This document shows positions 1,290-50,024 of a stretch of 64,000 nucleotides of DNA, one piece after another. The first letter of the stretch is position 1; each line of letters starts with the position of its first letter. The notes beneath the pieces are model-generated. The model searched no databases. It was not told where the DNA came from and saw only the letters and a list, made by a program, of their open reading frames with translations. The DNA lies in NCBI GenBank assembly GCA_951406725.2, contig OX597818.1, positions 1,798,001-1,862,000 on the forward strand, read 5' to 3'. A program made the translations under genes and the position numbers. Source of the DNA: Octopus vulgaris (lineage: Eukaryota).

Positions 1290-3791
1290 GTATAAATATT
1301 CGCAGCCTGGGGTCATATTGGAAGCAAGGCTACCTCCTTAACGACCTTAGGTCGCATCGTTTGGATGTAGTTGTAATTACCGAATCCAGACTGAATGGGC
1401 TGCAGGCTTTTTCGCCCCTTCTAAACGGCTACGTTTCTCCCTTTCGACCGGGAGGGGGTGGAGGAGTGGCACAGTGCTGGTCAGAAAAAACCTGGATTTA
1501 GAGATTAGAACTGTCTTTATAGTTCCGGAAGGCAGGTTGGTCGTTTTGGATGTGACGCACAGCAGTGGTAAAGTGTTCAGGCTGGTTGCTGTCTATGCTC
1601 CCTGCGAAGGAAAAGCCGGGCAGAAAGATTACTTCAGAAGCCTAAAGAATTTTCTTGGTACGTCGAACACGTTATAGTATTGCAAGGTGACTTCAACATA
1701 ATTTGTGATGCACGCGTAGATTATGTTGGCTCGAGAAAGAATAGGAGGGGATTACCACACCTCAACGATCTTCTAAGTCGTTTCGAGTTGGCAGATCGAT
1801 TCAGACTGGACCACCCAGACACTCCAGCGTGGACCTGGACAAGAAACGACGGGTCGTCCAGATCGTACATAGATAGAATCATAACTAGAAGGAAAGATAA
1901 GAAAATACTTGGCTGTCCACAAAAACATATCGTCAGCTACAGCATTCACAAATTAGTGACCTGCACGCTCGACATAGATAGCATGTGTAGACGAGGTACC
2001 GGTTACTGGAAGCTAAACAAGTCACTATTGGACTGTGAAGCCTACACGAATCGGATTAAACAATTAGTAATGAGGGCGTCAACCGGATCCATTATCAACA
2101 ACAAATGGTGGTACGCCCTGAAAAGAGCCATCAAATTTGAGTCAATTAGGTTTAGCAAAGAATTAGCTAGTGCTAGAAACAGAGTAGAAAAGGAACTAGT
2201 TAAGGCAATAGATGAGGCAATGAGGTCAGGCAGTGCATCGAAAGTGTTAGCGGCGAGGTTGGCACTCGACCAACATTTCAAAGCTAATTATGAAGGGTGC
2301 ATTGTCAGGGTTAAGATCCGTGTAATGAGACAGGAAGGGATCATACAGCCGGATGGGCCCAGGTGGTAGAGGGCCAGCGTGGCAACAACTCAACCATTCG
2401 ATCTTTGACGGACCCAAATGGACGATCAGTAAACGGACCCGTGGAGATGTGCAAGGTGTTTCACGATCATTTCGCCCAGCTATTCGGGAGGAGCGGCGGA
2501 CTGGAGCGTGGGGAGAAGCTCGCAGACTTCCTAGCCGGTTCGCCGCGTCTATCGAGGCCGGATGCGGAATCTTGTGAGGCGCCGATCACAGCCAAGGAAG
2601 TCGAGGATGTGTTGGCAGACTGCGGCCGGGACAAATCACCGGGACTCGATGGTTTGCCTTACGAACTCTATTGTAGCATGCCAGACTTGTTTGCGCTCCT
2701 ACCTACATGTGTGTACACCAACTGGCAACAGAACGGGAGAATTCCTAAGTCTGTGAGCCGAGGGGTAGTAGCGCTGTTAAGAAAGGACCCAAACAAAGGG
2801 GATTTAATTGATAATTTTCACTCTGCTTAACGGATTGTTGAAGATTTTGGCCAAGGTCTTAGCAAAAAGGTTGGCGCGGGTCGTGCGTGAACTTGTTGGC
2901 GAGGCGTGAACTTGTGCCATCCCTGGAAGGACCATCCACGACAATCTCCACTTTCTACGCTATACCATAGAAAGGGTAAATAGGATTCCTGGCAAGGATG
3001 GGGCTATGGTCCACTTGGACCAATCGAAAGCGTTCGATAGGGTAGACCATCAGTATCTGGCGGCGGTCCTCGCGGCGGCTAGCTTCGGCCCGACCTTCCG
3101 CGGATGGATCAACGCTTTATACATCAACATCGAATCGGTAGTTCGGGTGAACGGTTTCTTTTCGGAGCTGTTCCGCATTGAACGTTCGGTACGTCAAGGG
3201 TGTTCTCTCTCCCTGCTTCTTTACATTTTGGCCCTCGAGCCGTTGCTGAGGAGGTTGGAAACTATGAGGGGCACTCCGCAAGATCTAGGGTGCGGAAAGT
3301 CAGCTTCGGCGTATGCGGACGACATCACCGTCATCGTATCCCGGGTCGAGCACCTACAGTGGTGGGTGAGGCCTGAAGGGATTACGAAGCGGTGGAAGGA
3401 GCGAAAGTCAACCGGGATAAATCGGTCGGCTTGCAACTCGGCACCTGGAGGGGCAAGTCGATGTCTTCCGACAGCGTCGTAGGACGTTGGACAGAAGGGC
3501 CGGTGAAAATGCTTGGAATCTGTAATTAAGATCTTTCCGCCGACCTCCCTGAATAGGGAGGAGCGAGCCTGTTTTCTCTCGGTTGTTGCTGTGGCGAAAG
3601 AAGTAGTATGGAAGACGAGAATGAAAGGAATTGCAACCGGCATGTTTATCTCCAGTCTCGAGCTAATCGACTTTTTCGTTTTCCACATGAAACGGAAAAT
3701 AAAGCTGGAGAAGAAATGCCTGTCGCAAAGTGTGTTTCGTAAAAGATGGAAGTATATAGCAAGTATGTTGCGAGTGAAAGAACCTGTTTAA
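1290..3791 (+). pseudogene. ORF2 apurinic-like endonuclease plus reverse transcriptase; frameshifted, with an apparent internal deletion near 3520
   Basis: ORF pieces 1474-1677, 1680-2369, 2363-2830, 3006-3482 and 3513-3791 carry successive APE/RT motifs in different frames. Confidence 0.88.
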
Positions 3792-4029
3792 TCGAGAATG
3801 TAAAAAAGGAGATAGCAAAGTCTTCAGTGTGAGTATGTGGTTTGTGGTTTCAACGCGTCCTCCGCTTCATTTTGTGTTAATCACTCATTCTCATTTAATT
3901 GTATATATTTTAATTGTTTGTTTAGTCATACGTTTCGTCTCATTCGATACCCTGACCCCCAACGTTTGTTTTGTCTGTCCCCGTATTGTCCCCTCTTTTT
4001 CTCAACCTTATGGTGAATAAAGAAATACT

Positions 4030-4228
4030 CAGTCTCTCTCTCTCCCTCCCTCCCCCGCTGTGTCTTTCCCGTGAAACTCTGCCTCCTTCCACTTTTCTTT
4101 ATCTTATTTTTGTTTTGTTAGACGCAATGGCTCTCTCTCTCTCCCTCTCTCACTTTGTCTTTCCCGTGAAAATCCCTGCCTCCTTCTTCCACTTTTTCTT
4201 TATCTTATTTTTTTTATGTTAGACGCCA
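4030..4228. repeat. Two imperfect tandem copies of a ~95 bp CT-rich unit
   Basis: ctttcccgtgaaa...ccacttt...gttagacgc occurs twice. Confidence 0.7.
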
Positions 4229-4425
4229 TCAAAAAGTAATGGCTGATATTTGTTATGGTTAAAAGTTATGGTTGAAAATTGTTGAAAATAGATTTTTACC
4301 CTATCCGCGGGTGCCTCGGGGAAAAAATAAGTTGACAAAACCCAGATAGAATGTTGACAAATGTCCTCCTAAAATTTGAGCGACATGCGTGCTAATTTGT
4401 GGATTTACATAAATTCCTATCACGT

Positions 4426-7291: not shown

Positions 7292-8502
7292 CGAGGGACG
7301 TTCAATAAGTAATGCCTCTGACCCAGCTCTGAATTAATTGTGGTTTCTGATTTACAGGTGTTTGAACCGAAGTGTGAAATGGAGCCTGTTGAGTGTCGAG
7401 CAGTGATCCGGTTTTTGTATTTGAAAGGACGCACACCACAGGAGACTTTTGATGAAATGAAAGTAACTTATGGTAATGATGCCCCATCATATAACCTTGT
7501 AAAACGCTGGCATCATGAATTCAAACATGGTCGGAACTCTGTGGAAACAGCTCCCAGATCTGGTCGCCCCCTTCTGCCATTGATGAGACGTCTGTCCGTC
7601 AAGTTGAGGCTGCCACTTTGGAAGATCGACGCATAATTATTCGCCAAATAGCCCATGAGGTCAAGATTAGTACCGGATCTGTGGAAACTATCATTCATGA
7701 CCATTTGCATATGCAAAAGGTGTCTGCCAGATGGATTCCCAGGTTGCTTACGCCTTTCCAGAAGCAAGAACGCGTCGAGTGCTCGAGGGTGAATTTGGAG
7801 ATGTGCCAAGAAGATGAGTCAAAATTTTTCAAAAGACTGATTACACAGGATGAAACCTGGGTCCATCACGATGATCCAGAAACCAAAGCCCAGTCAATGC
7901 AGTGGAAGCACCGTGACTCACCCCCTCCAAAGAAGGCAAGGGTGTAGCCCTCCGCTGGCAAGGTCATGCTCACAGTCTTCTGGGACCAGGACGGAGTAGT
8001 GATGACAGATTTCCTGGCAAAGGGTACCACAATTGCAGGAGCCTATTATGCTTCACGTTTGTGGAAATTAAGAGAAGTTATCAAAATCAAGAGGCGGGGC
8101 AAGATCAGCAAAGGCATCCTCCTCCTGCAGGACAACGCTCCGGTCCACAACTCGCTTGTCGCCAGATCAGAAGCAGAGGCGTATGGCTATGAACTCCTCC
8201 CCATCCCCCCTACTTTCCTGACCTTGCACCCTCTGATTTTCACCTCTTCCCAATCATGAAGTTGTTTTTGAAAGGAAAGCGTTTCCCAGATGATGCAGCC
8301 TTGATTTCTGAAGTCACGTTGAGGTTGGAGGACCAAGCTGGGTTCTTCTACAAAAACGGTCTCCAGAGCCGCATCAAACGATGGGAGAAATGCGTAACTC
8401 TGGTTGGTTCCTATGTAGAAAAAGACTAATAACTGTGCCAAGTTTCGTTGCTCTACTGCTATGGGAAGTGGGTCAGGGGCATTACTTATTGAACGCCCCT
8501 CG
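7292..8502 (+). mobile_element. Full-length mariner (Tc1/mariner DD34D type) element
   Basis: TIRs cgagggacgttcaataagtaatgcc / ggcattacttattgaacgcccctcg flanked by TA; transposase inside. Confidence 0.95.
7379..8429 (+). pseudogene. mariner transposase pseudogene
   Basis: MEPVECRAVIRFL start, WIPRLL, QDETW, QDNAPVH, PDLAPSDF-like motif; frameshifts and an internal stop at 7947. Confidence 0.93.
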
Positions 8503-13146: not shown

Positions 13147-13352
13147 TATAATATAATGCAATGTGCCTCATCGGTCATGCTAGAAAGAGAAGATTAAAAC
13201 AACAGAGTGGGAATGAGTGAAGTCTGAGAGAGCTAAAGAAAGCAAACAGTAGTAAAAGGTTTTACTCTGAAGACGCTGGTATTTTAATCAAAATAAAACT
13301 GTAAAACTTTATCGTGAATTGTATTTAGTTTATATATATACGCATATATTAG

Positions 13353-13393
<41 letters not shown>

Positions 13394-13615
13394 CCTTGTC
13401 CTACGTCCTGGTTTTGTTTTGTTGTTTATTTTTTATACTTTATTTTTACCGTTATTGTTTTTACGTTTTTGTATTCTTATTGTTGTCACGTATTCTGTAT
13501 TTTTGTTCGTGTACTTCGTTCGTTTTCCGTCCTCGTGTTGTATACATTCGAAGCTTTCTTCCAGGGGATCTAATGCACTTGGCTTAGATTTCCCGTGGCG
13601 GGCTGCCCATATCGG

Positions 13616-13677
13616 AGCAATCTCAAGATTAATCAGCCGAAATTGCTAAGATGATCTGGTTCTTGACTGATGACTGA
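13616..13677 (+). ncRNA. Candidate non-circularly permuted hammerhead ribozyme, copy 1
   Basis: AGCAAUC/UCAAGA ... UCAGCC-GAAAUUGCU ... UCUUGA-CUGAUGA-CUGA; stems III (6 bp) and I (6 bp) are in exact register with the core. Confidence 0.65.
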
Positions 13678-14394
13678 GGGCTTCGAATGTCCCGTCCTGT
13701 GGTTCTTGTGTCGTCTCTGTGGCGTTTCATGTTCTTGTCCATGTCTGTAATTATTTTTACTGTTTACCTATATAATCGGCGGCTACGTATCCACAATTGT
13801 CCTTATACGATAAGTATATTTTTTTCTCAAGCATTGATACGACTCTTAATCTTTCTTTCTCTCTCTCTCTCCTCCCTTATTCCCCCTCCTTTCTTTCCCT
13901 CTCCATCCGTTTCCCCCCCCTTCTACGTTTCTCTATCTCTCTCACCTCCAGCCCCCTCGATCTGTCTCTTTCTTCTCCTCCCTCGTCCACCTTCTCTCTC
14001 TTTTCATCTGTCCCTTTCTCTTGTCTTTTGTTCTCACGTGACCGCTGACCGCTGTTGAGCGCTCTTTTCGTTCCAGCAGCCGTTGAAGCAACACGTACTT
14101 GTTCGTCTCCCTGTGGCCATTAGGCACAACTTCATAAGCCAGCCCCATGCTCAATTCGTCCTGTCGAAAGACCCTTGTCCTACGTCCTGGTTTTGTTTTG
14201 TTGTTTATTTTTTATACTTTATTTTTACCGTTATTGTTTTTACGTTTTTGTATTCTTATTGTTGTCACGTATTCTGTATTTTTGTTCGTGTACTTCGTTC
14301 GTTTTCCGTCCTCGTGTTGTATACATTCGAAGCTTTCTTCCAGGGGATCTAATGCACTTGGCTTAGATTTCCCGTGGCGGGCTGCCCATATCGG

Positions 14395-14456
14395 AGCAAT
14401 CTCAAGATTAATCAGCCGAAATTGCTAAGATGATCTGGTTCTTGACTGATGACTGA
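14395..14456 (+). ncRNA. Candidate non-circularly permuted hammerhead ribozyme, copy 2
   Basis: Identical to 13616-13677. Confidence 0.65.
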
Positions 14457-14736
14457 GGGCTTCGAATGTCCCGTCCTGTGGTTCTTGTGTCGTCTCTGTG
14501 GCGTTTCATGTTCTTGTCCATGTCTGTAATTATTTTTACTGTTTACCTATATATATATATATATATATGAAATCAAATATCAAACTCTGTTTTCAAAGTA
14601 TTATCGTTCACATAACATATACATGAATGTTATGTGAACAATATTTTTGTCCTATGTGTAGGTTTTTTTAGCATTTAATGCATTTTTCATTTATTGAGAA
14701 ACTGAACACCACGCATCTCGACTTTTATTAACAATA

Positions 14737-14865: not shown

Positions 14866-16010
14866 GCAGCAGGATATCAAGAGGTGATGCAGTACGACTG
14901 TTTCTAGCGGCTCCATTTAATTGAACAATGCAATCATTACATCAATTTAAATGCAGAGCTATCATTACCTGCACAAATAAATATGATTTTAATTAGTTTA
15001 AGGAGCGAGATGACAGAATCGTTAGCATGCCGGATGAAATGCTTAGCAGTATTTCGTCTGCCGCTACGTTCTGAGTTCAAATTCCGTTGAGGTCGACTTT
15101 GCCTTTCATCCTTTCGGGGTCGATTAAATAAGTACCAGTTACGCACTGGGGTCGATATAATCGATTTAATCCGTTTGTCTGTCCTTGTTCGTCCCCTCTG
15201 TGTTTAGCCCCTTGTGGTTAGTAAAGAAATAGGTATTTCTTCTGCCGTTACCTTCTGAGTTCAAATTCTGCCGAGGTCGACTTTGCCTTTTATCCTTTCG
15301 GGGTCGATAAATTAAGTACCAGTTATGCACTGGGGTCGATGTAATCGACTTAATCCCTTTTGTCACTTCTTGTTTGTCCCCTCTATGTTTAGCCCCTTGT
15401 GGGCAATAAAGAAATAAGAATTTTAATCAGTTTGACACATTAATATAATTTTTCTCAAATACTTTAACTGAGAGAGATGGAAGAAATCCATGTTATCTCT
15501 GTTATAGCTAAGAAAAGACTACACTTCCAAGAAAGGCACGAAGCCCACTGCGCTCATAGCTTGTAAAGGATTGAGGTTCATTCAGTTACTCTATACCCAA
15601 TTTACTACTCCTAATGTCTTGACAGTAATGTCTTGACCATACCTAGCCATGAGCTATCTTGCCCTTCATTCCAAACAGGCACAGTCCTCTAGTCTTAGAT
15701 TTAGTAGTTGATAAAAAGAGAAATAAATTAGAAATGAACCTCAATTATTTACAATCTATGGCCTCAGTGGGGTCTATGACTTTCTTGGAAGAGTAGTCTA
15801 TTCTTAGCTACAATAGCGACAACATGGATTTTTTCCATCTTCTTGCTCTATTAAAGCATTTGAGAAAAATTATATTAATGTGCCCAACTGATTAACATTT
15901 TAATTATTTATGTAGCTGATGATAGTCCTGCATTTAAATTGATGTAATGATTGCATTGTTCGATTAAATGGAGCCGCTTAAACTGCATCACGTCTTGATA
16001 TCCTGTTGCT
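14866..16010. mobile_element. Foldback/MITE with ~300 bp diverged inverted arms; left arm interrupted by a SINE
   Basis: aggatatcaagaggtgatgcag...atttaaatgcag plus 15421-15580 are inverted at ~15730-16010. Confidence 0.7.
15001..15417 (+). mobile_element. tRNA-derived SINE, dimeric
   Basis: Pol III B-box-like gagttcaaattcc twice; second unit restarts at gtatttc(g/t)tct; flanked by a ttttaat(t/c)agttt duplication. Confidence 0.88.
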
Positions 16011-17836: not shown

Positions 17837-17907
<71 letters not shown>

Positions 17908-17990
17908 ACACAAAGAGAAAACACAACAACGCGAGGACGTGGAACAAATATAGTATTATTGGACGCTCAGGAAGGAAGGGAAGAAGGAGG

Positions 17991-18025
17991 ATTTTACGTT
18001 TCGAGCGTAGCTCTTCGTCAGAAAC
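17991..18025 (-). ncRNA. Minimal type I hammerhead
   Basis: GUUU-CUGACGA-A-GAGC-UAC-GCUC-GAA-ACGU-A/AAAU. Confidence 0.75.
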
Positions 18026-18133
18026 ATAGGAAAAGGAAAGATCCAGAGAAGGGAAGACGGAGGGAAAAAATCGCCAACGGTACACAAGCGGTCACATTTT
18101 GAATATATATATATATGTATGTATATATATATG

Positions 18134-18167
<34 letters not shown>

Positions 18168-18264
18168 TATATAGTTAAGAAAGCACAAAAAAAAACACAA
18201 CAACGTGAGGACGTGGAACAAATATAGTATTATTGGACGCTCAGGAAAGAAGGAAAGAAGGAGG

Positions 18265-18299
18265 GTTTAACGTTTCGAGCGGAGCTCTTCGTCGGAAAC
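18265..18299 (-). ncRNA. Minimal type I hammerhead, U4C variant
   Basis: GUUU-CCGACGA-A-GAGC-UCC-GCUC-GAA-ACGU-U/AAAC. Confidence 0.65.
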
Positions 18300-18425
18300 A
18301 TAGGAGAAGGAAAGATCCAGAGAAAGGAAGACAGAGGGAAAAACATCGCCAACGGTACACACGCGGTCAGATTTTGAATGGATATATATATATATGGATA
18401 TATATATATATATGGATATATGAAT

Positions 18426-22254: not shown

Positions 22255-22845
22255 AGATAAGACAGTAAGGTGTGATTTGGGGGAAATTTGACTGCTATTT
22301 CTACCAGGTCTAGCTGCCATGTAGGGGTCTCCCTCATAGGCTCATACATACATATATACATAGATAAGACAGTGAGGTGTGATTTGGGGGAAATTTGGCT
22401 GCTATTTCTACCAGGTCTAGCTGCCATGTAGGGGTCTCCCTCATAGGCTCATACATACATATATACATAGATAAGACAGTAAGGTGTGATTTGGGGGAAA
22501 TTTGGCTGCTATTTCTACCAGGTCTAGCTGCCATGTAGGGGTCTCCCTCATAGGCTCATACATACATATATACATAGATAAGACAGTAAGGTGTGATTTG
22601 GGGGAAATTTGGCTGCTATTTCTACCAGGTCTAGCTGCCATGTAGGGGTCTCCCTCATAGGCTCATACATACATATATACATAGATAAGACAGTAAGGTG
22701 TGATTTGGGGGTAATTTGGCTGCTATTTCTACCAGGTCTAGCTACCATGTAGAGGTCCCCCTCATTGGCTCATATATATATATACATACATAAGACAGTA
22801 AGGTGTGATTTGAGGGAGATTTGGCTGCTGTTTCTACCAGGTCTG
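22255..22845 (-). repeat. 107-bp tandem array (~5.5 units) with an HDV-like ribozyme fold on the minus strand
   Basis: Period 107 (repeated ORF starts 22320, 22427, 22534, 22641, 22748). Confidence 0.9.
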
Positions 22846-27894: not shown

Positions 27895-30800
27895 TATTAT
27901 TATTATTATTATCATTATTATTATTATCATTATTATTATTATTATTATTATTATATGTTTGACTTTTGCTGGTATCTGAGTTAGGTAGCAATCAGCCCCT
28001 TTTGCTATCATTCCCAGGGCACTTATGACAACAGGTATTGTTTTAGTCTTCAGGTTCCACTTTTTGCTGATTTCTATTTCCAGATCTTCATATTTGCTCA
28101 ATTTTTGGTAGGTTTTGACAGATACGTTTATATCAATTGGGACCAGTCATATCAATGAGGAGGCATGATTTTTATCTGAAGTCTTTCAATATGATGTCTG
28201 GCCTATTTGCATCTATCTTTCTGTCAGTTTGAATGGTGAAGTTCCAGAGGAGTTAGATGTGGTCATTTTCAAGCACTGGAGGTGGTTTGTGTTCCCACCA
28301 GTTTTTTCATGGGGCAACTCAAGGATTTTGCAAATTACCCAGTGAATATATTGTGCAACTCTATCATAACTGTTGAGATACTCTGTAGGCGCAAGAAGAC
28401 TGCACTTAGAGACAATATGATCAATGGTTTCATTTTGTTGTTGACATACATTATATGTTGGGCTACTGCCGTTCTTTAATATGTTGGCCTGGTAGTTCCT
28501 TGTAGGTATGCATTGATCTTGAGCTGCTATGATAAACCCTTCTGTTTCAGATGTTAAGCCAGAGGCCATTATCCATTGATGGGTCAGGGCTTTGTCAACA
28601 TCTGCATTATTCGCTCTCTTTTGGTATTTGCCATAGAGAGGTTTTTCTTGCCATTTATCAATCAGAATATCTCAGGCAGCAGTTTTAGCACGGGTTTTCA
28701 TGCGCTTAGCTTTTTCTGCGCTTGTTTCTTGTACGTCTAATTCCGGAATTTGTTGTATTTGCAATTCACTTAGATATTCCTTTGCCTGTTTTGTTACTGA
28801 GTATGATGCTTTCTTGATTTCATGTTTTGAGACAAGTTTTAACATCCAGTCCTCAGAGTTTTTCAAATAGGTGTCTAGGCCAATTGTGGCAATCTTCATT
28901 GTTAATGCTAGTTGTAAAAGTCCACGGTCTCCCTCTTTTCTTGGCAGATAAAGTCGTTCTATGTCTGCCTTAGGGTGGTGCATTCTATGCATTGTCAACA
29001 GTTTTCGTATTTTTCCGTCAAGATTACATATTTCAGTAATTGACCAGTTAATGATATTGAAACTGTAAGTCACGACTGGTATGGCTAATGCATTGATCGC
29101 TTCGATCTTATTTCTCGCAATCAGCTCTGTCCTGAGTATTGCTCTTACTCTGCGATAACATTCTCTCCTGATCCTTTCCTTCATCACTGAGTGCCTTATT
29201 CCGTCCCCTTCAATTACCCCTAGGTACTTGTAGCTCTCCGCAGGGTCTAACTCTTTTATGACATTCTGCTGGTCAAGGCTAACGTTAGATGTTTCTGTTA
29301 TTTTTCCTTTGATAAAGGTAACTTTTGCACATTTATCGAGGCCAAATTGCATTCTGATGTCCTCACTGAATTGTTTAACAATCGCTAGTAAGCCCTTAAG
29401 TTGTTGGTCATTTTTTGCAAAGAGCTTAAATCATCCATGTAAATGAGATGATTTATATTTTTATCAAACATTTTATATCCGTACTGTGCGTCATTGAGCA
29501 ATTTTGAGAGAGGTATTAAGGCTAGACAAAAGAGGAGTGGTGATAGTGAGTCACCCTGGAAAATGCCACTTGAAATTTTTACATCACCAGCATTTTGAGA
29601 TTCATCGTCACTGCTCAAAGTTAGTGTGGTTCTCCATGATCTCATACTTACAGACAAAAAGTTTCGCAGAGTAGGCGCTATTTTATACATTTCCAGGCAT
29701 TTCTTAATCCAGCTATGTGGTAGGCTATCAAAGCCTTTTTATAGTCTATCCAGGCTATTGACAAGTTCTTGTGTCGTTTGTGACAATCTTCTAAGATCAT
29801 CTTATTAATGAGTAGCTGATCTTTACAACCATAGAATCCACGTTTACATCCTTTTTGCTCATTAGGGAATATGCTGTTTTCTATTAAAAAACTATAGGTA
29901 TATTCAGTCAGGACAAATGTTAGCGTTTTATATATAGTTGTTAAGCAGTTTATGGGTCTATAAGTTTTTGGTTCATTTGTTTCTTCACTTTTTGGAAGCA
30001 GGAATATACCATTGACTAGCCAAGAAGGCATCCTACTAGGGTGTTGCAAAACATCGTTGTAAAGTTCTGTTAGCAGTTCATGGCTCTCTGGGAAGGCATT
30101 CAACCAGAAGTTAGGAATTTTATCCTTTCCTTGAGACTTCCATTTGCTTGACCTCCTGAGAGCAGATCTTATATCTTCTACCTTGACACCCTCCCACTTT
30201 TGCTCCTCTACGGATTCCAAGTCTAGATATTCTACAAATCCAAGGTGCCTTTTTCGTTGTGTGTTTTTTCTTCTGCCCAAATTTTATTTCAAAATCTCTG
30301 CACTTTTTCTTTTGATGGTACAGACTCCACAGTAACTGGTGTTTTTCCCTATCTTCCTGTAAAACTTTTGGGGGTTATTTTTGAACATGTTGTTGTCCTT
30401 GAAGAATCTAACATGCTTTTCAAACCTCGCTATGCGGGCAGCTTTAGCAGATACCTTTTGCTTGATGGTTTCTATGGTGGCATCAATATCAAGTATAGTT
30501 TTATTTTATATTTTTTCTGTAATCTTTGGGTTTTTGTAGGTTTGGTAGTCTTGTCAACCTTAAGGTTTTTCAAACTTTCAATGTCAGACCTAAGTAGTTT
30601 AATTTGTTCTTGAATACGCTCTTGCCAAGAAGGCTTTTTGTGGGAATGTTGCCGTTTTCTAATCTTTTCACCACATAGAATCGTTGAGATTTTCGCGGAT
30701 GCATGATACAGGTGGTTGAGATCTGTGATATCCACATCATTAGCTGAAATTATATCCTTAAGTGTAAGGCGGATTTTACCAATTATTTTCAGGTTTTGGT

Positions 30801-32278
30801 TAGAATTGCGGATTTTAGGGAGTGTATCGCCTTCATCCATACTGGTTTCTTTAATTTTCAGCCATTCAGTCATGATTTGATTTTTTTAGCTCATGTAGTT
30901 CTGTTGGGTCAATATTTGTGTGACTTTCTTCATCTATTTGATGTTCATTTGTCTTAGTGTTTATGCTTAGTTCAGGGAGTATTTCACTTTGCCTATCAAT
31001 TTTACTATCTCTTTCAATACTTACTGCGTTTTTATCAGCCCTGGGCTAGTCTATAATTATTTCCTCTGTATTATCTTCTGTAGCTGCAGCTTCGTTCTTT
31101 TTATCCTTTACTGCTTGTTTAATTTGGTCAGTCTCTACTTCAGTCAGTAATTTTTTTCATAATGTTTCTTCTGACGTTGGCAAGTTTGTTACTGTCTATG
31201 TAGGGTCTTACTTCAGGGTGTTTCTGTCTCTAGTTTAAGTAGGTTTGTACAGTATTAGATTTATCTGTGGGGAAATATATGGCATGGTAGAAGGCCGTAA
31301 GAACTTCTTTACTATCTCCCCTAGACCATTTGCATTCTTTTTCTTTTGGTTATTTGATGACGGGCATGGATGGCCATCTGTTGGAATATTCCTGTTGTGG
31401 GGTACGTCCCGCTCCTGAGTGTCGGAAAGATTTGAATCAGTAGCTGATTTTTCAATCAGAATTTGGTTCAATATTCGGGTATGTGGTCTTTTGTAATCCG
31501 ATCGATGACCATTGCGATTTGTAATTTGCTTTGTTAACAGTGTGGCATGACGAGCTTCGACGCTTACATTAGGAGACGAATCTGTCAGTTTAGGGTTAAT
31601 TTTTTGCGACAACACCGTCTCCGTGTTCTCTGCATGTAAACATTGTTCGTAGTGTAGCTTCTTAAGGCTAGCAGATCTGTATTCGTCTGTATTTTTTTGT
31701 TGATAGATTTATCTCCGAACATAGTTTTTTTGTGGTGTTTTTTAAACTTATGAAAAGTTCACTCTGTCTGTGTTAGTTCGAAAAAATGAAAATAAAATAA
31801 GAAGAAAAAAAGCAAGTTTTTATTTTGTTTTTGCTTGGTTTGTAACACGTGCTTTCATGTGCCTGAGTGTGTGTCCTGTAAATTTCACGTAGTTGTGTAA
31901 AACTTTGGGATGTATGTAAAGTCTTATGGGTATCAAAATGTATATATGATTGTGTAGACATTCGAGTGTATGCGTAATTACTCAATTTATGTACTCACTA
32001 TTTTGGTCCGTTTTTGGTCCTTATAATTTGTAAACTTTCCGATGTTGATATCGCGTGTGTGTTTCGCACATGTTTCATTGAAACACCGTTCGTAGGAGAA
32101 ACTGTACTTTGTATGGCAGTAAAATTCCGTTTTTTTCTTAGTATCTTCCTTAAAAGGCCACTTCCTTCAAGTTTTCCTCAGGTTCCTTTATCTAATTCCA
32201 TCCATGTTATTGGATTAGATTTGTTTTTGAATGGAGAGCCAGGTTTAGTACATCCATGTCGTTATTCAGTATGGGCCC

Positions 32279-45999: not shown

Positions 46000-47247
46000 G
46001 AGTTACCGCCGTTTTTTAAATTTAAACTTTTTGACAGGTTTATAAAAAAATAACAACTAATTAATCAATAATGTATTCCCCCTTGTTGTTTACAACTTCT
46101 TCCCAACGTTCAACAAGATTTTTAATACCTCGTTGATAGAAATCACCCGATTTCGACTCGAAAAATTGATCCAACCAAGCTCTCAATTCTGCATCAATAT
46201 TGAACGAAACTCCACGCATAGCATTTGAAAGAGATCGAAAGAGGTGGAAATCCGTTGGTGCCAGATCAGGAGAGTATGGTGGGTGTGGTAGCACTTCCCA
46301 GCCATGCGTTTGAATGGCTTCCTTGGTAATATTGGCGATATGAGGGCGGGCGTTGTCGTGCAGAAGAACTCCATGCTGTCGATTAGGTCTTTTCTCTTGA
46401 ATAGCTGTATTGAGTCGTTCCATCTGTTGAACATAGAGTTCCGCCTTGACCGTTTGGTTCCGTTCAAGCAATTTGCAATGGATAATCCCTTCCCAGTCCT
46501 ACCATACGCACAACATCGTTTTACGCGGATGAAGATCTTGTTTCACGCGCGGTGTTGCTTGTTTACTGGGGTTAAGCCATTCCTTACGCTGCTTCATATT
46601 GATGTACAGACACCATTTTTCGTCGCCAGTAACGATTCAGTAAAGAAATCGTTGCTTGTGTACATGAGTTGAGCGGTGACGAGCAAGCAAACCAGCGGAG
46701 TCACTTAAAGCATGCGGAACCTATGCTCCATACTTCTGTACCTCTCCCATCGAGTAAAGATGCTTCTCTATAGCAGTGTGGGAGCATTCCATTTTCTCTG
46801 CCAGTTTCCTTGTCGTTTGACGAGAATTTTCGTGCAAAAATTGGTTTAATCACTCTTCATCGAACTCAACTGGACAGCCAGAACGACGGATATCTTTGAG
46901 GTTAAAATTTCTATTTTTGAATTTGGCATACGAATCACGAGCGGTTTTTTCAGCTATGGCACACTTTCCATACACAGCACAAATGTTACGAGCAGCTTTT
47001 GCGGCCTTAAAACCTTGATTAAAAGCAAAAAGAAGGAGGTGTCGAAAATGCTCGTTTTTCTTAACTTGACATTCCATTTTAATGATTTGAAAATAAACAA
47101 AAATTAACTGAAATTAGCTAGAAAAAAAATAGATTTCAAAATGATTCAAAAATAGAATTCTCGAAATAAATAGATTCCAAAATTTTAAAACGCAATAAAT
47201 TCCAAAATTAAAAAAAAAACGACGGGAACTTAGTTGCCAACCCAATA
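46000..47247 (-). mobile_element. mariner element; one TIR intact, the other eroded
   Basis: gacgggaacttagttgccaacccaata terminus; transposase remnant inside. Confidence 0.9.
46061..47077 (-). pseudogene. mariner DD34D transposase pseudogene
   Basis: MECQVKKNEHFRH N-terminus; HDNARPH and YSPDLAPTDFHLF motifs; stops and frameshifts. Confidence 0.93.
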
Positions 47248-47462: not shown

Positions 47463-47654
47463 CGTGTGTATCGTTGGCGATTTTCTTTCTCCGTCTTCTC
47501 TTCTTTGGACTTTTTCTTTTTTTTTCTATATTTCTGACGAAGTTCCGCTCGAAATGTGAAATCCTCCTTCTTTCTTTCCTTTCCTGAGCGTCCAATAACA
47601 CTGTACTTATTCCACGTCCTCACGTTGTTGTGTTTTCTCTTTGTTCATGTCTGG

Positions 47655-47783: not shown

Positions 47784-48545
47784 TTTCACCTACATCGAAA
47801 CCAACATAATAGCCAGAGTCAGTTGTTTATATACATTAATTAAATTTGAGCGAAATTTAAAAGTTTTAGAGTAATAATGGAGATAAAAGTCTTCAGAGAA
47901 TTTGTAAAAGAACTTCTTGTAGGAAGTGTTTGAAACTGTGTTAGTTTATGGCTCTTCTACCTGGAGACTAACAAAAAGTCTTGACATTATGCTGAATGAC
48001 ACCTCTACACGCGTTTCATTCTATTTTCAATGTGGCCTAGGAAGAACACTCCACAAAAGAAAGAATATACAATAAGCTTCCTGAAGTATCAGACATCATA
48101 CAGAAAGACACAGATAAATTTACTGGACACTGAATTAAGGAGAAGGTTGTTAATAGACGACACTAGATGTCACTGAGGAACTGTCACATAACATGGACAA
48201 TAGAGAAGGGTAGAGTATCAGAGCGATGGCTGCCCTAGCAAGCTCGACCTGAAACTCATATATATGCAATACATACATACATACATACATACATACATAC
48301 ATACATACATACATACATGCATACATATATATATACATACATACATGCGTACATACATGCATACACACAGACACACACATGTATATATATATATAGGGAG
48401 AGTTTACGAAGAAAACAAAAGACGAAGACAGGTGGTGTACAAAACAAACAGATGTATTAGTATAACGCTCAGGAATAGAAAAAGTCTTTTACGTTTCGAG
48501 ACTACGCTCTTCTACAGAAAGGGACACAGAAAAAACAAGGAGAGA
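47781..48545. repeat. Left arm of a ~0.8 kb inverted duplication (partner 56177-56991)
   Basis: Near-identical reverse complement; the same spurious ORFs appear on opposite strands. Confidence 0.92.
48486..48521 (-). ncRNA. Hammerhead-like motif with A6U core (CUGUAGA)
   Basis: CUUU-CUGUAGA-A-GAG..CUC-GAA-ACGU-A/AAAG; inverted copy at 56201-56236. Confidence 0.5.
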
Positions 48546-48602
48546 AAAAATGTGTGTTGTGGCTAACCATCTATCATATATATATATATATATATATATA
48601 TA

Positions 48603-50024
48603 GGAAGAAAACCAGCCTAGCAAAATATGTCTGGGAACTAAAAGAAAAGGAAGCCCCACCTTTCAACGTGACATGGAGCATTCTGAACAGGGCGGCACCA
48701 TACAGCCATGGAGCATACAAAAGTAATTTCAAGTGCAAGCTTCGTCTATTAGAAAAAATGTATATCTTATTCAAAGACAATAATTCTTTGAATCAAAAAA
48801 GTGAGCTAATGAACTTATGTAGGCACGCGGCTAAATTTAAAATGTCGAATATAAATATACCATATGGATAGAGTATATATTTTGTATTTTTGATTTTGAT
48901 TTTGACTCTTGAACGATGAGCGCTACGATGGATTTTGTTTCCAAGCTATGCGGATCTTAATCCGTATAGCAAAGTCTTATGTTTCTACATATATATTAGG
49001 AAAAACCTCCAACTTTGTTTTCATGTTATTGTATTGTATAGGATTACCTTGATTATTTATATTACCTTGATTATTTATAAATGACCCAAAATAGGATGTT
49101 ATATTTTATTTTATATGTCTTTCGTATATATTTTTATTAATGCACCAATTTTTTTTTAAAAAAAGCAATGTTTTTTTTTAAAAAAAAGCAATGTTGTCAA
49201 AATTAGAATGTTGATATAAGTATGTGTATAGCAAAGCATATGTATTTGTAAGCATGCGTATCTGTGTATGTGTAAGTGAAAGTATGTTTGTGCTTAAGCA
49301 CACATATACACGACTGTATGTATATGTATCCATTCAAACTTGTGTATGTATACTTGTCTCCATATATGCCAATAATGCCGTTACACTGCTTGTATACATA
49401 ATTTTTTCTTATTTCGTTTTTTTCCCCACCCCTCCTTCGTTCCTTTTTCTCTCTCTCCCTTTCTTTCGTCCCCCCCCCTTACTCAGTATATGAGAATCGC
49501 TACATAGATCATTTTTAACTTGCGTGCGAGATGGTTTGCGTGAATATATGTACACATGCTTTTATGTGAATATTTAGATTTATATTCATACGTTTGTATA
49601 TGTATGGCGTTTGCGCGCATAATTTTGTGTATGTTGATATATATATGTAGATTTTAATATAAATATGTATTGCAGTGTAATATTTATAACAGGTTTAATT
49701 TCTATGCATTAATTTGCACTGTCTTCATTAACGTCAATATGTATTTTATTCAATGTAAGGTTTTTTCCTCGGATTTTATAATTTTTATAAGTTTTTTTAT
49801 ATATATATACATATATTTTTGACCTTTTTGTTTATCGCTCGAAGATTGACCGTTTTTTCTAAAGGGCCAATCAAACAAGTCCATTTCTTTTTAAAGGTGT
49901 AGCGTTTGTAAGAGTATAGATTGAATTGATATATCGGTTCCATTCTAGCAAAAACTGTCTGATGAACGGCAACGAGAAACTCAGAGTAACAGATTTTGTT
50001 GAATTTTCTGCTGCTTAAAATAAA

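Follow-up and report, generated by a model that had tools for sequence, protein, structure and literature searches.

A putative Penelope-like retrozyme of Octopus vulgaris with a rewired hammerhead motif, and chromosomal arrays that point to repeated copying of one RNA

Near one end of a 64,000-nucleotide stretch of the Octopus vulgaris genome (the whole stretch of DNA that was analysed, here called the window), two long direct repeats enclose a non-coding spacer within a TA microsatellite, and each repeat carries a hammerhead-like motif. What kind of element leaves this footprint: a pair of LTRs, or successive turns of a tandem unit? And could its transcript cut itself, close into a circle, and return to the chromosome from there?

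Comparison of the window with itself answers the first question. Positions 13390-13774 and 14169-14553 are identical over 385 nt at a spacing of 779, in agreement with the two direct repeats of a preliminary description of this DNA. The first nucleotide of the match is a 1-nt flank match and the final six, TATATA, are common with the target; the element-specific repeat is 13391-13768. TA runs stand at both ends, as expected of the insertion into (TA)n that was proposed. The insertion is one-and-a-half turns of a tandem non-coding unit rather than an LTR pair, and is laid out as follows.

13331..13390, no strand: left flank of the (TA)n target, a TA run
13391..14553, + strand: whole insertion, 1.49 turns of the 779-nt unit (unit 1-779, then 1-384), 5'-truncated and with a fixed 3' end
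13391..13768, + strand: first repeat copy ('pseudo-LTR'), its left end being the truncation point
13769..13774, + strand: TATATA at the unit junction, a near-universal copy end and putative internal priming site
13775..13825, + strand: conserved motif past the junction (GCGGC.ACGTA ... CTTATA.G.TAAGTATAT), common to related families
13826..14169, + strand: pyrimidine-rich non-coding unit body
14170..14547, + strand: second repeat copy, with the second ribozyme at 14323-14469, its predicted cut after C14401, and the fixed 3' end at 14547
14548..14568, no strand: right flank of the (TA)n target, from which a separate target-site duplication is indistinguishable
13623..14401, + strand: predicted 779-nt self-excised monomer or circle, with ends taken from the predicted cuts

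The unit is 41% T and 28% C (44% GC), and neither of the two spacer frames tested in the window has a Pfam match, which bears out a CT-rich, non-coding spacer. It contains no ORF, and so nothing of the Naiad type (N-terminal GIY-YIG, C-terminal RT). The insertion is thus non-coding, lacks a true LTR, and consists of tandem units with one hammerhead each, all as in non-LTR retrozymes.

The genome searched comprises 2.8 Gb in 227 contigs. The best 40 matches to the ribozyme region are 100% identical, and the 30 examined are all head-to-tail 779-nt units. A subfamily-diagnostic 30-mer has 497 exact genome matches and a broader one 2188. Most positional results come from a subfamily sample of 78 mapped 30-mer loci (contigs C1 and C2, and contig C3 up to 81.3 Mb; the last six listed loci left out). 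There the copies end at unit position 384 in 74 of 78 loci and at 382-383 in two more, a TA run follows the 3' end in 76, and the 5' ends lie at varied distances upstream of it, 143 to 1691 nt away. None of the 78 begins at unit position 1 (the nearest starts are 6, 6, and 772), so the 384-bp repeat is not the defined LTR it had been taken for; its left end is merely a truncation. The seven multi-unit loci aligned cover 2.0-5.5 units, the longest array having 5.5, and inverted neighbouring copies occur at three pairs (L070, L075, and L013).

The fixed 3' end, variable 5' truncation, and partial tandems, together with microsatellite targeting and inverted neighbours, are those of a non-autonomous Penelope-like element (PLE). 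All of these traits, TA targets included, are described for Penelope-like elements (PMC8557442, as far as consulted). Retrozyme character with one hammerhead per unit, claimed at the outset, is supported by the tandem units across family copies. Both ways in which that claim was said to be able to fail are closed. An assembly artefact is excluded by the unit-to-unit junction with its fixed TATATA, which has 139 exact occurrences in the genome, and by the 779-back joint in two contigs of an independent run (organism B); an absence of other copies with this architecture is excluded by the many head-to-tail copies. The family is, judging from its sequences, young and present in many copies, and to that extent the suggestion of a recent insertion stands. 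The identity of the two repeats adds little to it: such identity is expected when one template is copied twice, and by itself therefore dates the insertion only loosely.

Several related arrays were seen beside the subfamily. In four runs that may be of RNA, contigs span the unit junction and account for much of the unit; no weight is placed on them here. A sister family (L247-L252, L275-L277) has units of 843-864 nt, a 25-mer with 795 matches, and arrays of up to six ribozymes whose unit length is array-specific. One sister-family copy lies directly 5' of three subfamily units (L282), by nested insertion or template switch. A related subfamily forms an array of five ribozymes with nearly identical units of 720-726 nt (L110). 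In a chimera at L128:1900-2950, the 3' end and tail motif of family B are joined to the body and ribozyme of the unrelated family C.

How might such a unit be released? Each repeat carries AUC/UCAAGA ... AGCC GAAA UUGC ... UCUUGA CUGAUGA (the slash marks the predicted cut), with C17 at 13622 and 14401, exactly the two positions, 779 apart, at which cleavage had been predicted. The parts of the first motif are listed here.

13544..13558, + strand: outer helix O, 5' strand, pairing with 13676-13690 and predicted to keep A9 near stem II
13561..13598, + strand: hairpin H, leading to the stem II 5' strand; fourth junction arm
13601..13605, + strand: stem II 5' strand GGCUG (G10.1 = 13601), upstream of the cut and unjoined to A9
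13607..13613, + strand: bridge helix, 5' strand, pairing with 13653-13659 with one mismatch; a brace between stems I and II as in type SGC
13616..13628, + strand: S block, comprising the stem III 5' strand, AUC triplet, predicted cut after C13622, and stem I 5' strand
13634..13647, + strand: G block, comprising the stem II 3' strand CAGCC, GAAA (G12 = 13639), and stem III 3' strand
13661..13673, + strand: C block, comprising the stem I 3' strand and CUGAUGA (C3 = 13667, A9 = 13673)
13676..13690, + strand: outer helix O, 3' strand

The blocks stand in the order S-G-C with stems I and III and the full core, which is the arrangement of a type-SGC hammerhead and upholds the permuted hammerhead of the preliminary description. 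The motif is more than permuted, since the 5' strand of stem II precedes the cut. A plain SGC reading, in which stem II would immediately follow CUGAUGA, is ruled out: no base pair forms there in any of 10 representatives, and an unbroken C block (CUGAnGA, then the stem II strand) is found in none of them. Instead, A9 runs into the outer helix, whose other strand reaches G10.1 by way of the hairpin, giving a four-way junction. In families B and C this junction is perfect; in the window's subfamily it contains 2-nt linkers. The bracing helix measures 5-8 bp in six relatives, and in the window a mismatch interrupts it.

Across seven related sequences, pairing holds in 96% of 221 cells, against 20-49% in slid controls, and six pairs have changed on both sides (stems I, III, and the outer helix). 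Stem II is invariant among these seven. It differs between five sequence-unrelated families (GGCUG/CAGCC, GAAGGA/UCCUUC, GAAGG/CCUUC, GAGCA/UGCUC, and GACACC/GGUGUC), always with the 5' strand upstream; the upstream match is absent from one representative, L115. A descriptor scan gave 221 matches in the loci examined, most of them by design from chosen families, and none in 2.3 Mb of shuffled sequence. Among its finds are three sequence-unrelated families (L128, L100, and L155) in which stem II and all other helices are rewritten. The core letters are kept, the free N7 varies, and the NUH triplet varies within allowed values (AUC, GUC, GUU, AUA, and GUA). The hammerhead wiring thus covaries across unrelated families; catalysis itself is a prediction.

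Standard tools do not recognise this motif. No Rfam hammerhead match was found in the window, either at the gathering threshold or at E 10, and the minimum-energy fold of the ribozyme region omits the knot. With its S-G-C order and no Rfam match, it is not the type I hammerhead of non-LTR retrozymes; nor does the 779-nt monomer, weakly folded at z 0.11, show their high self-pairing. To our knowledge, the A9-G10.1 break has no precedent, and the wiring was not found in the open-access literature searched. The block rule for hammerheads, in the sections of PMC10085705 consulted, assumes that A9 is joined to G10.1; here the two are detached.

The same wiring, read by eye, closes the Naiad_Obim and Naiad_Ovul consensuses in the portion of the Craig supplement used, and a motif taken from the published octopus Naiad consensuses occurs 879 times in the genome. 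A decayed Naiad in this genome also ends in it, and 7 of 30 Naiad RT loci have it within the flank examined. In the part of PMC8557442 consulted, Naiads are listed as being without a canonical hammerhead, and eight are marked 'half core', Naiad_Ovul among them. An RT search in which 150 of 245 candidates were scored gave 123 Naiad matches, none of them intact, the longest open frame being 292 aa; no sequence match was found between the unit and Naiad 3' ends.

If the motif cuts, the genome might preserve copies that begin at the cut. A search for TA joined to the motif yielded, by manual count among its first 100 matches, at least 37 distinct loci with TA-joined starts: 22 begin at unit 233, eight at 235, and seven upstream. 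Unit 233 is the first base after the predicted cut (after C232). Of the 22 starts at 233, seven have additional non-TA letters in front of the T; in the other 15, the T could derive from the TA flank, so that a start at 234 is possible. In the subfamily, 4 of 69 copies at risk start at the cut, against 0.28 expected at a flat rate (two of these four are also in the 37-locus set), and so do 2 of 11 distinct matches in a Naiad-type family that is unrelated. Within the subfamily, starts at the cut account for only some 6% of copies. The majority of copies continue through the site, with no indel there in 77 read-through junctions, and none of 13 copies stops at the upstream cut. From the genomic 5' ends, then, we infer cleavage after unit C232 in vivo.

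Two other classes of ends were considered and set aside. Starts at unit 239-242 (9-10 of them) are not a sign of cutting, since another TTAAT, a microhomology hotspot at 454-459, attracts as many (4 of 25). A transcript start at unit 385 is ruled out, with only one of 19 copies stopping there.

The arrays also bear on what happens after cutting. At family-polymorphic sites, 0 of 117 unit-to-unit comparisons differ, against 32 expected (linked sites, 17 arrays), and private alleles recur in every unit of their array. In L279, one of seven long loci examined and a member of the window's own subfamily, the same five A>G changes at unit 245-259 occur in all four ribozymes and turn GAAA into GAGG, an A14G/A15.1G form of the core. 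In L275, a sister-family array 83% like the subfamily over 293 nt, eight A>G changes lie within 53 nt 3' of the cut in its six ribozymes; one such site is lost in one unit through a 1-nt deletion in a G run, and the remainder of the unit has two other shared substitutions. An A after G tends to be spared in L275 (1 of 8 changed, against 7 of 10 others; p 0.02). ADAR disfavours an A that follows G.

Genome-wide, the double A>G change has 29 matches at 15 loci in 11 patterns, against 0 and 0 for two matched double T>C patterns, 22 for a single T>C, and 4124 for the unedited motif. Five of the 15 loci are arrays of 3-6 units, each internally uniform; two of the edited arrays (contig C15) are alike, 30 kb apart, and may be one event. 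The A>G changes are clustered and strand-specific, and they destroy GAAA. Private A>G clusters are absent from the 78-locus sample, whose selection for an exact ribozyme 30-mer could not have shown them in the ribozyme. Edits that destroy the core must be later than cutting. For L279 and L275 alike, even the shortest precursor with a repeat contains two edited ribozymes, so one RNA molecule was copied more than once. The repeated copying of an edited monomer is most simply explained by a ligated circle. No account of such edited genomic arrays, or of rolling-circle copying in PLEs, was found in the open-access literature searched.

Could the same DNA arise without a circle? The ribozyme might cut while long inserts come from uncut read-through, and multimers from an RT that jumps from the 5' end of the monomer to its 3' end; a circle and a linear monomer with seamless jumps leave identical DNA. 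In favour of this alternative, reverse transcription by a PLE enzyme starts internally, with a preference for uncut RNA in vitro (PMC11167929, in the part consulted), most octopus copies read through the cut, and the monomer is not self-paired. We nonetheless regard it as unlikely. Uncut multimers alone fail to give identical edits and private alleles in every unit, and the contrast between extra letters at 7 of 22 cut starts and no indel in 77 read-through junctions fits ligation better than jumping. Growth of arrays in the DNA, with a short insertion lengthened afterwards by unequal crossing-over or slippage at its direct repeats, is most improbable. Later duplication could account for a C>T shared by units 2 and 4 of L275 and for the two like C15 arrays. 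Arrays are nonetheless dispersed, each with its own TA-joined ends, and since the shortest direct-repeat precursor of L279 or L275 has two identically edited ribozymes, an RNA monomer must have been re-read at least once even so.

The motif could also be no ribozyme at all, just a conserved structure (a protein-binding site or an RT pause) at which stalling piles up 5' ends at 233. The silence of Rfam even at E 10, and a break between A9 and G10.1 for which no precedent was found, would suit that explanation. It is nevertheless very unlikely, given core letters that are kept while N7 and NUH vary within allowed values, and starts that fall on the predicted bond both in the unit's own family and in the unrelated Naiad-type one. 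A plant-like LTR retrozyme, in which the 384-bp repeats would be two true LTRs, would account for two identical repeats with one ribozyme each around a non-coding middle. It is scarcely credible here: the left boundary is unfixed, arrays reach 5.5 units, and no short target-site duplication is visible. The hallmarks of plant LTR retrozymes (two defined LTRs; type III hammerheads; a 4-bp target-site duplication) are not those of this insertion.

What is left, and what we hold to be the probable answer, is a 5'-truncated, 1.5-turn, non-autonomous Penelope-like non-LTR retrozyme: its rewired hammerhead would cut, the monomer would circularise, and a borrowed RT would roll it into (TA)n. A transcript across such a locus would be cut at 13622 and 14401 to give a 779-nt monomer. 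The monomer likely circularises, probably through a host ligase of the RtcB type, most inserts being seamless across the cut; RtcB ligation is reported for other animal retrozymes (PMC7229834, in part). A PLE protein would then nick (TA)n and prime internally at UAUAUA, so that the insert end would differ from the RNA end; internal initiation is described for the Poseidon PLE (PMC11167929, in part). Inserts longer than one unit would be further turns on the same molecule. Open monomers would leave 152-nt inserts beginning at the cut, and circles would leave inserts of any length, here 1.5 turns. Some molecules would be A-to-I edited after cutting, with edits that kill the core and become fixed in every turn.

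Several observations weigh against this retrozyme reading. A monomer with z 0.11 is unlike the self-paired circles of known retrozymes; A9 is detached from G10.1, with an imperfect junction in the subfamily; and starts at the cut are as few, and stops at the upstream cut as absent, as given above. In vitro, the Poseidon PLE used uncut RNA and had no need of the hammerhead (PMC11167929, in part). Finally, the one intact young PLE found shares no sequence with the unit, and the Naiads found are not intact.

Which protein might mobilise the unit? The start of the spacer had been likened to a PLE endonuclease C-terminus. The letters SLYDKY... are present in one frame, and the likeness is unsupported: neither frame has a Pfam match, the best blast hit to an intact PLE protein scores 16.9 bits, and 1-nt indels between subfamilies break the frame. 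The motif at 13775..13825, shared as a module between families, is more likely a PLE 'tail' or RT-binding module than a coding remnant. No ORF was found upstream of the ribozyme in loci L001-L200, and no autonomous PLE sharing the 3' end of the unit was found among the top candidates scored. A young intact PLE (L273:1463-5401, G000:C17) has a 1312-aa ORF that encodes an RT and, C-terminally, an endonuclease. The 150 matches scored for it are 92-100% identical, TA runs flank it, and its pseudo-LTR has a type I-like hammerhead of CUGAUGC core. Its protein has no Pfam match at E 0.01, and by its motifs we take it to be Neptune-like. It has only a 21-nt AT-rich match in common with the unit, and as mobiliser is a candidate only.

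The window holds other mobile sequences. Another PLE 3' end is present twice at 17900-18380 (-), with a period of 274 nt and TA runs between the copies, and includes a type I hammerhead of small size (CUGACGA ... GAAAC GUA); a similar type I motif is at 47534 (+). We take 48479-48871 (-) to be a remnant resembling a PLE endonuclease C-terminus, and 1351-4400 (+), 28200-31700 (-), 7322-8259 (+), and 46061-46498 (+) to be broken LINE-like RT elements and mariner-like transposase fragments. A tandem SINE-like repeat pair at 15049-15423 (+) is nested in a long-inverted-end element (14906-14998 with 15886-15978), and 22255-22844 is a tandem array of 5.5 units of 107 nt that are 96% alike.

These results bear on the role of hammerheads in Penelope-like elements and on the origin of the tandem 'pseudo-LTR'. 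The genome appears to keep a record both of copies that begin at the predicted cut and of single edited RNAs that were copied repeatedly. A cut-ligate-roll cycle could thereby be put to a direct test with constructs of 155 and 779 nt. A bolder proposal stands in even balance: that the four-way junction opened between A9 and G10.1 is a new topology, the hidden Naiad-type ribozyme, driving an active, genome-wide family of large unstructured circular RNAs, with ADAR edits that lock the circles and arrays that record their copying by PLE RT. The wiring would add a hammerhead topology beyond the six block permutations, would explain the apparent lack of a ribozyme in Naiads, and would mean that thousands of copies in a single animal genome escape standard searches. 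If the bolder proposal is true, the chromosomal arrays would be a direct record of a Penelope-type RT copying circular RNA.

The relatives that follow are compared on the parts of their sources consulted. Like the Poseidon PLE of Anolis (PMC11167929), the octopus unit has a putative internal RT start at fixed sites, AT-rich targets, and an optional tail. The Poseidon start site is not homologous to the target, its hammerhead is dispensable in vitro, and no reads ended at the cut in the portion of that source used; the octopus unit, in contrast, ends within UAUAUA matching the target, and many of its copies start at the predicted cut. With Naiads (PMC8557442) it shares (TA)n targeting, partial tandems, inverted neighbours, and the ribozyme wiring; unlike them, it has no ORF and no match to Naiad 3' ends, and the local Naiads are decayed.

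Among ribozymes, a close comparison is the type-SGC hammerhead HRIMA-1 (PMC10085705), which has the same S-G-C order, short linker between stems I and II, bracing helix, and full core. The octopus motif departs from it in three respects: the stem II 5' and bridge strands are upstream of the cut; A9 does not precede G10.1; and two extra helices enter. In the sections consulted, that source gives the SGC type as known from metatranscriptomes and not from genomes of known organisms. The PK hammerhead (PMC11300833) is likewise knotted with a standard core, but keeps a three-way core, forms its pseudoknot with loop II, and has a different strand order.

The tandem architecture itself, a PLE-derivative retrozyme, is of an already known kind. 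Metazoan non-LTR retrozymes are described as non-coding tandem units with one hammerhead each and are proposed to be PLE derivatives (PMC7229834; bioRxiv 10.64898/2026.07.22.740005; both in part). The octopus unit shares with them tandem non-coding units, a single hammerhead, GC under 45%, the absence of an LTR, and a proposed derivation from PLEs through circular RNA. It differs in its rewired hammerhead, where theirs is type I; in its weakly folded 779-nt unit, against 170-450 nt typically and up to 972 reported; in inserting strictly into (TA)n, with a 3' end fixed inside the unit; and in what appears to be a DNA record of both the cutting and the re-reading of an edited molecule.
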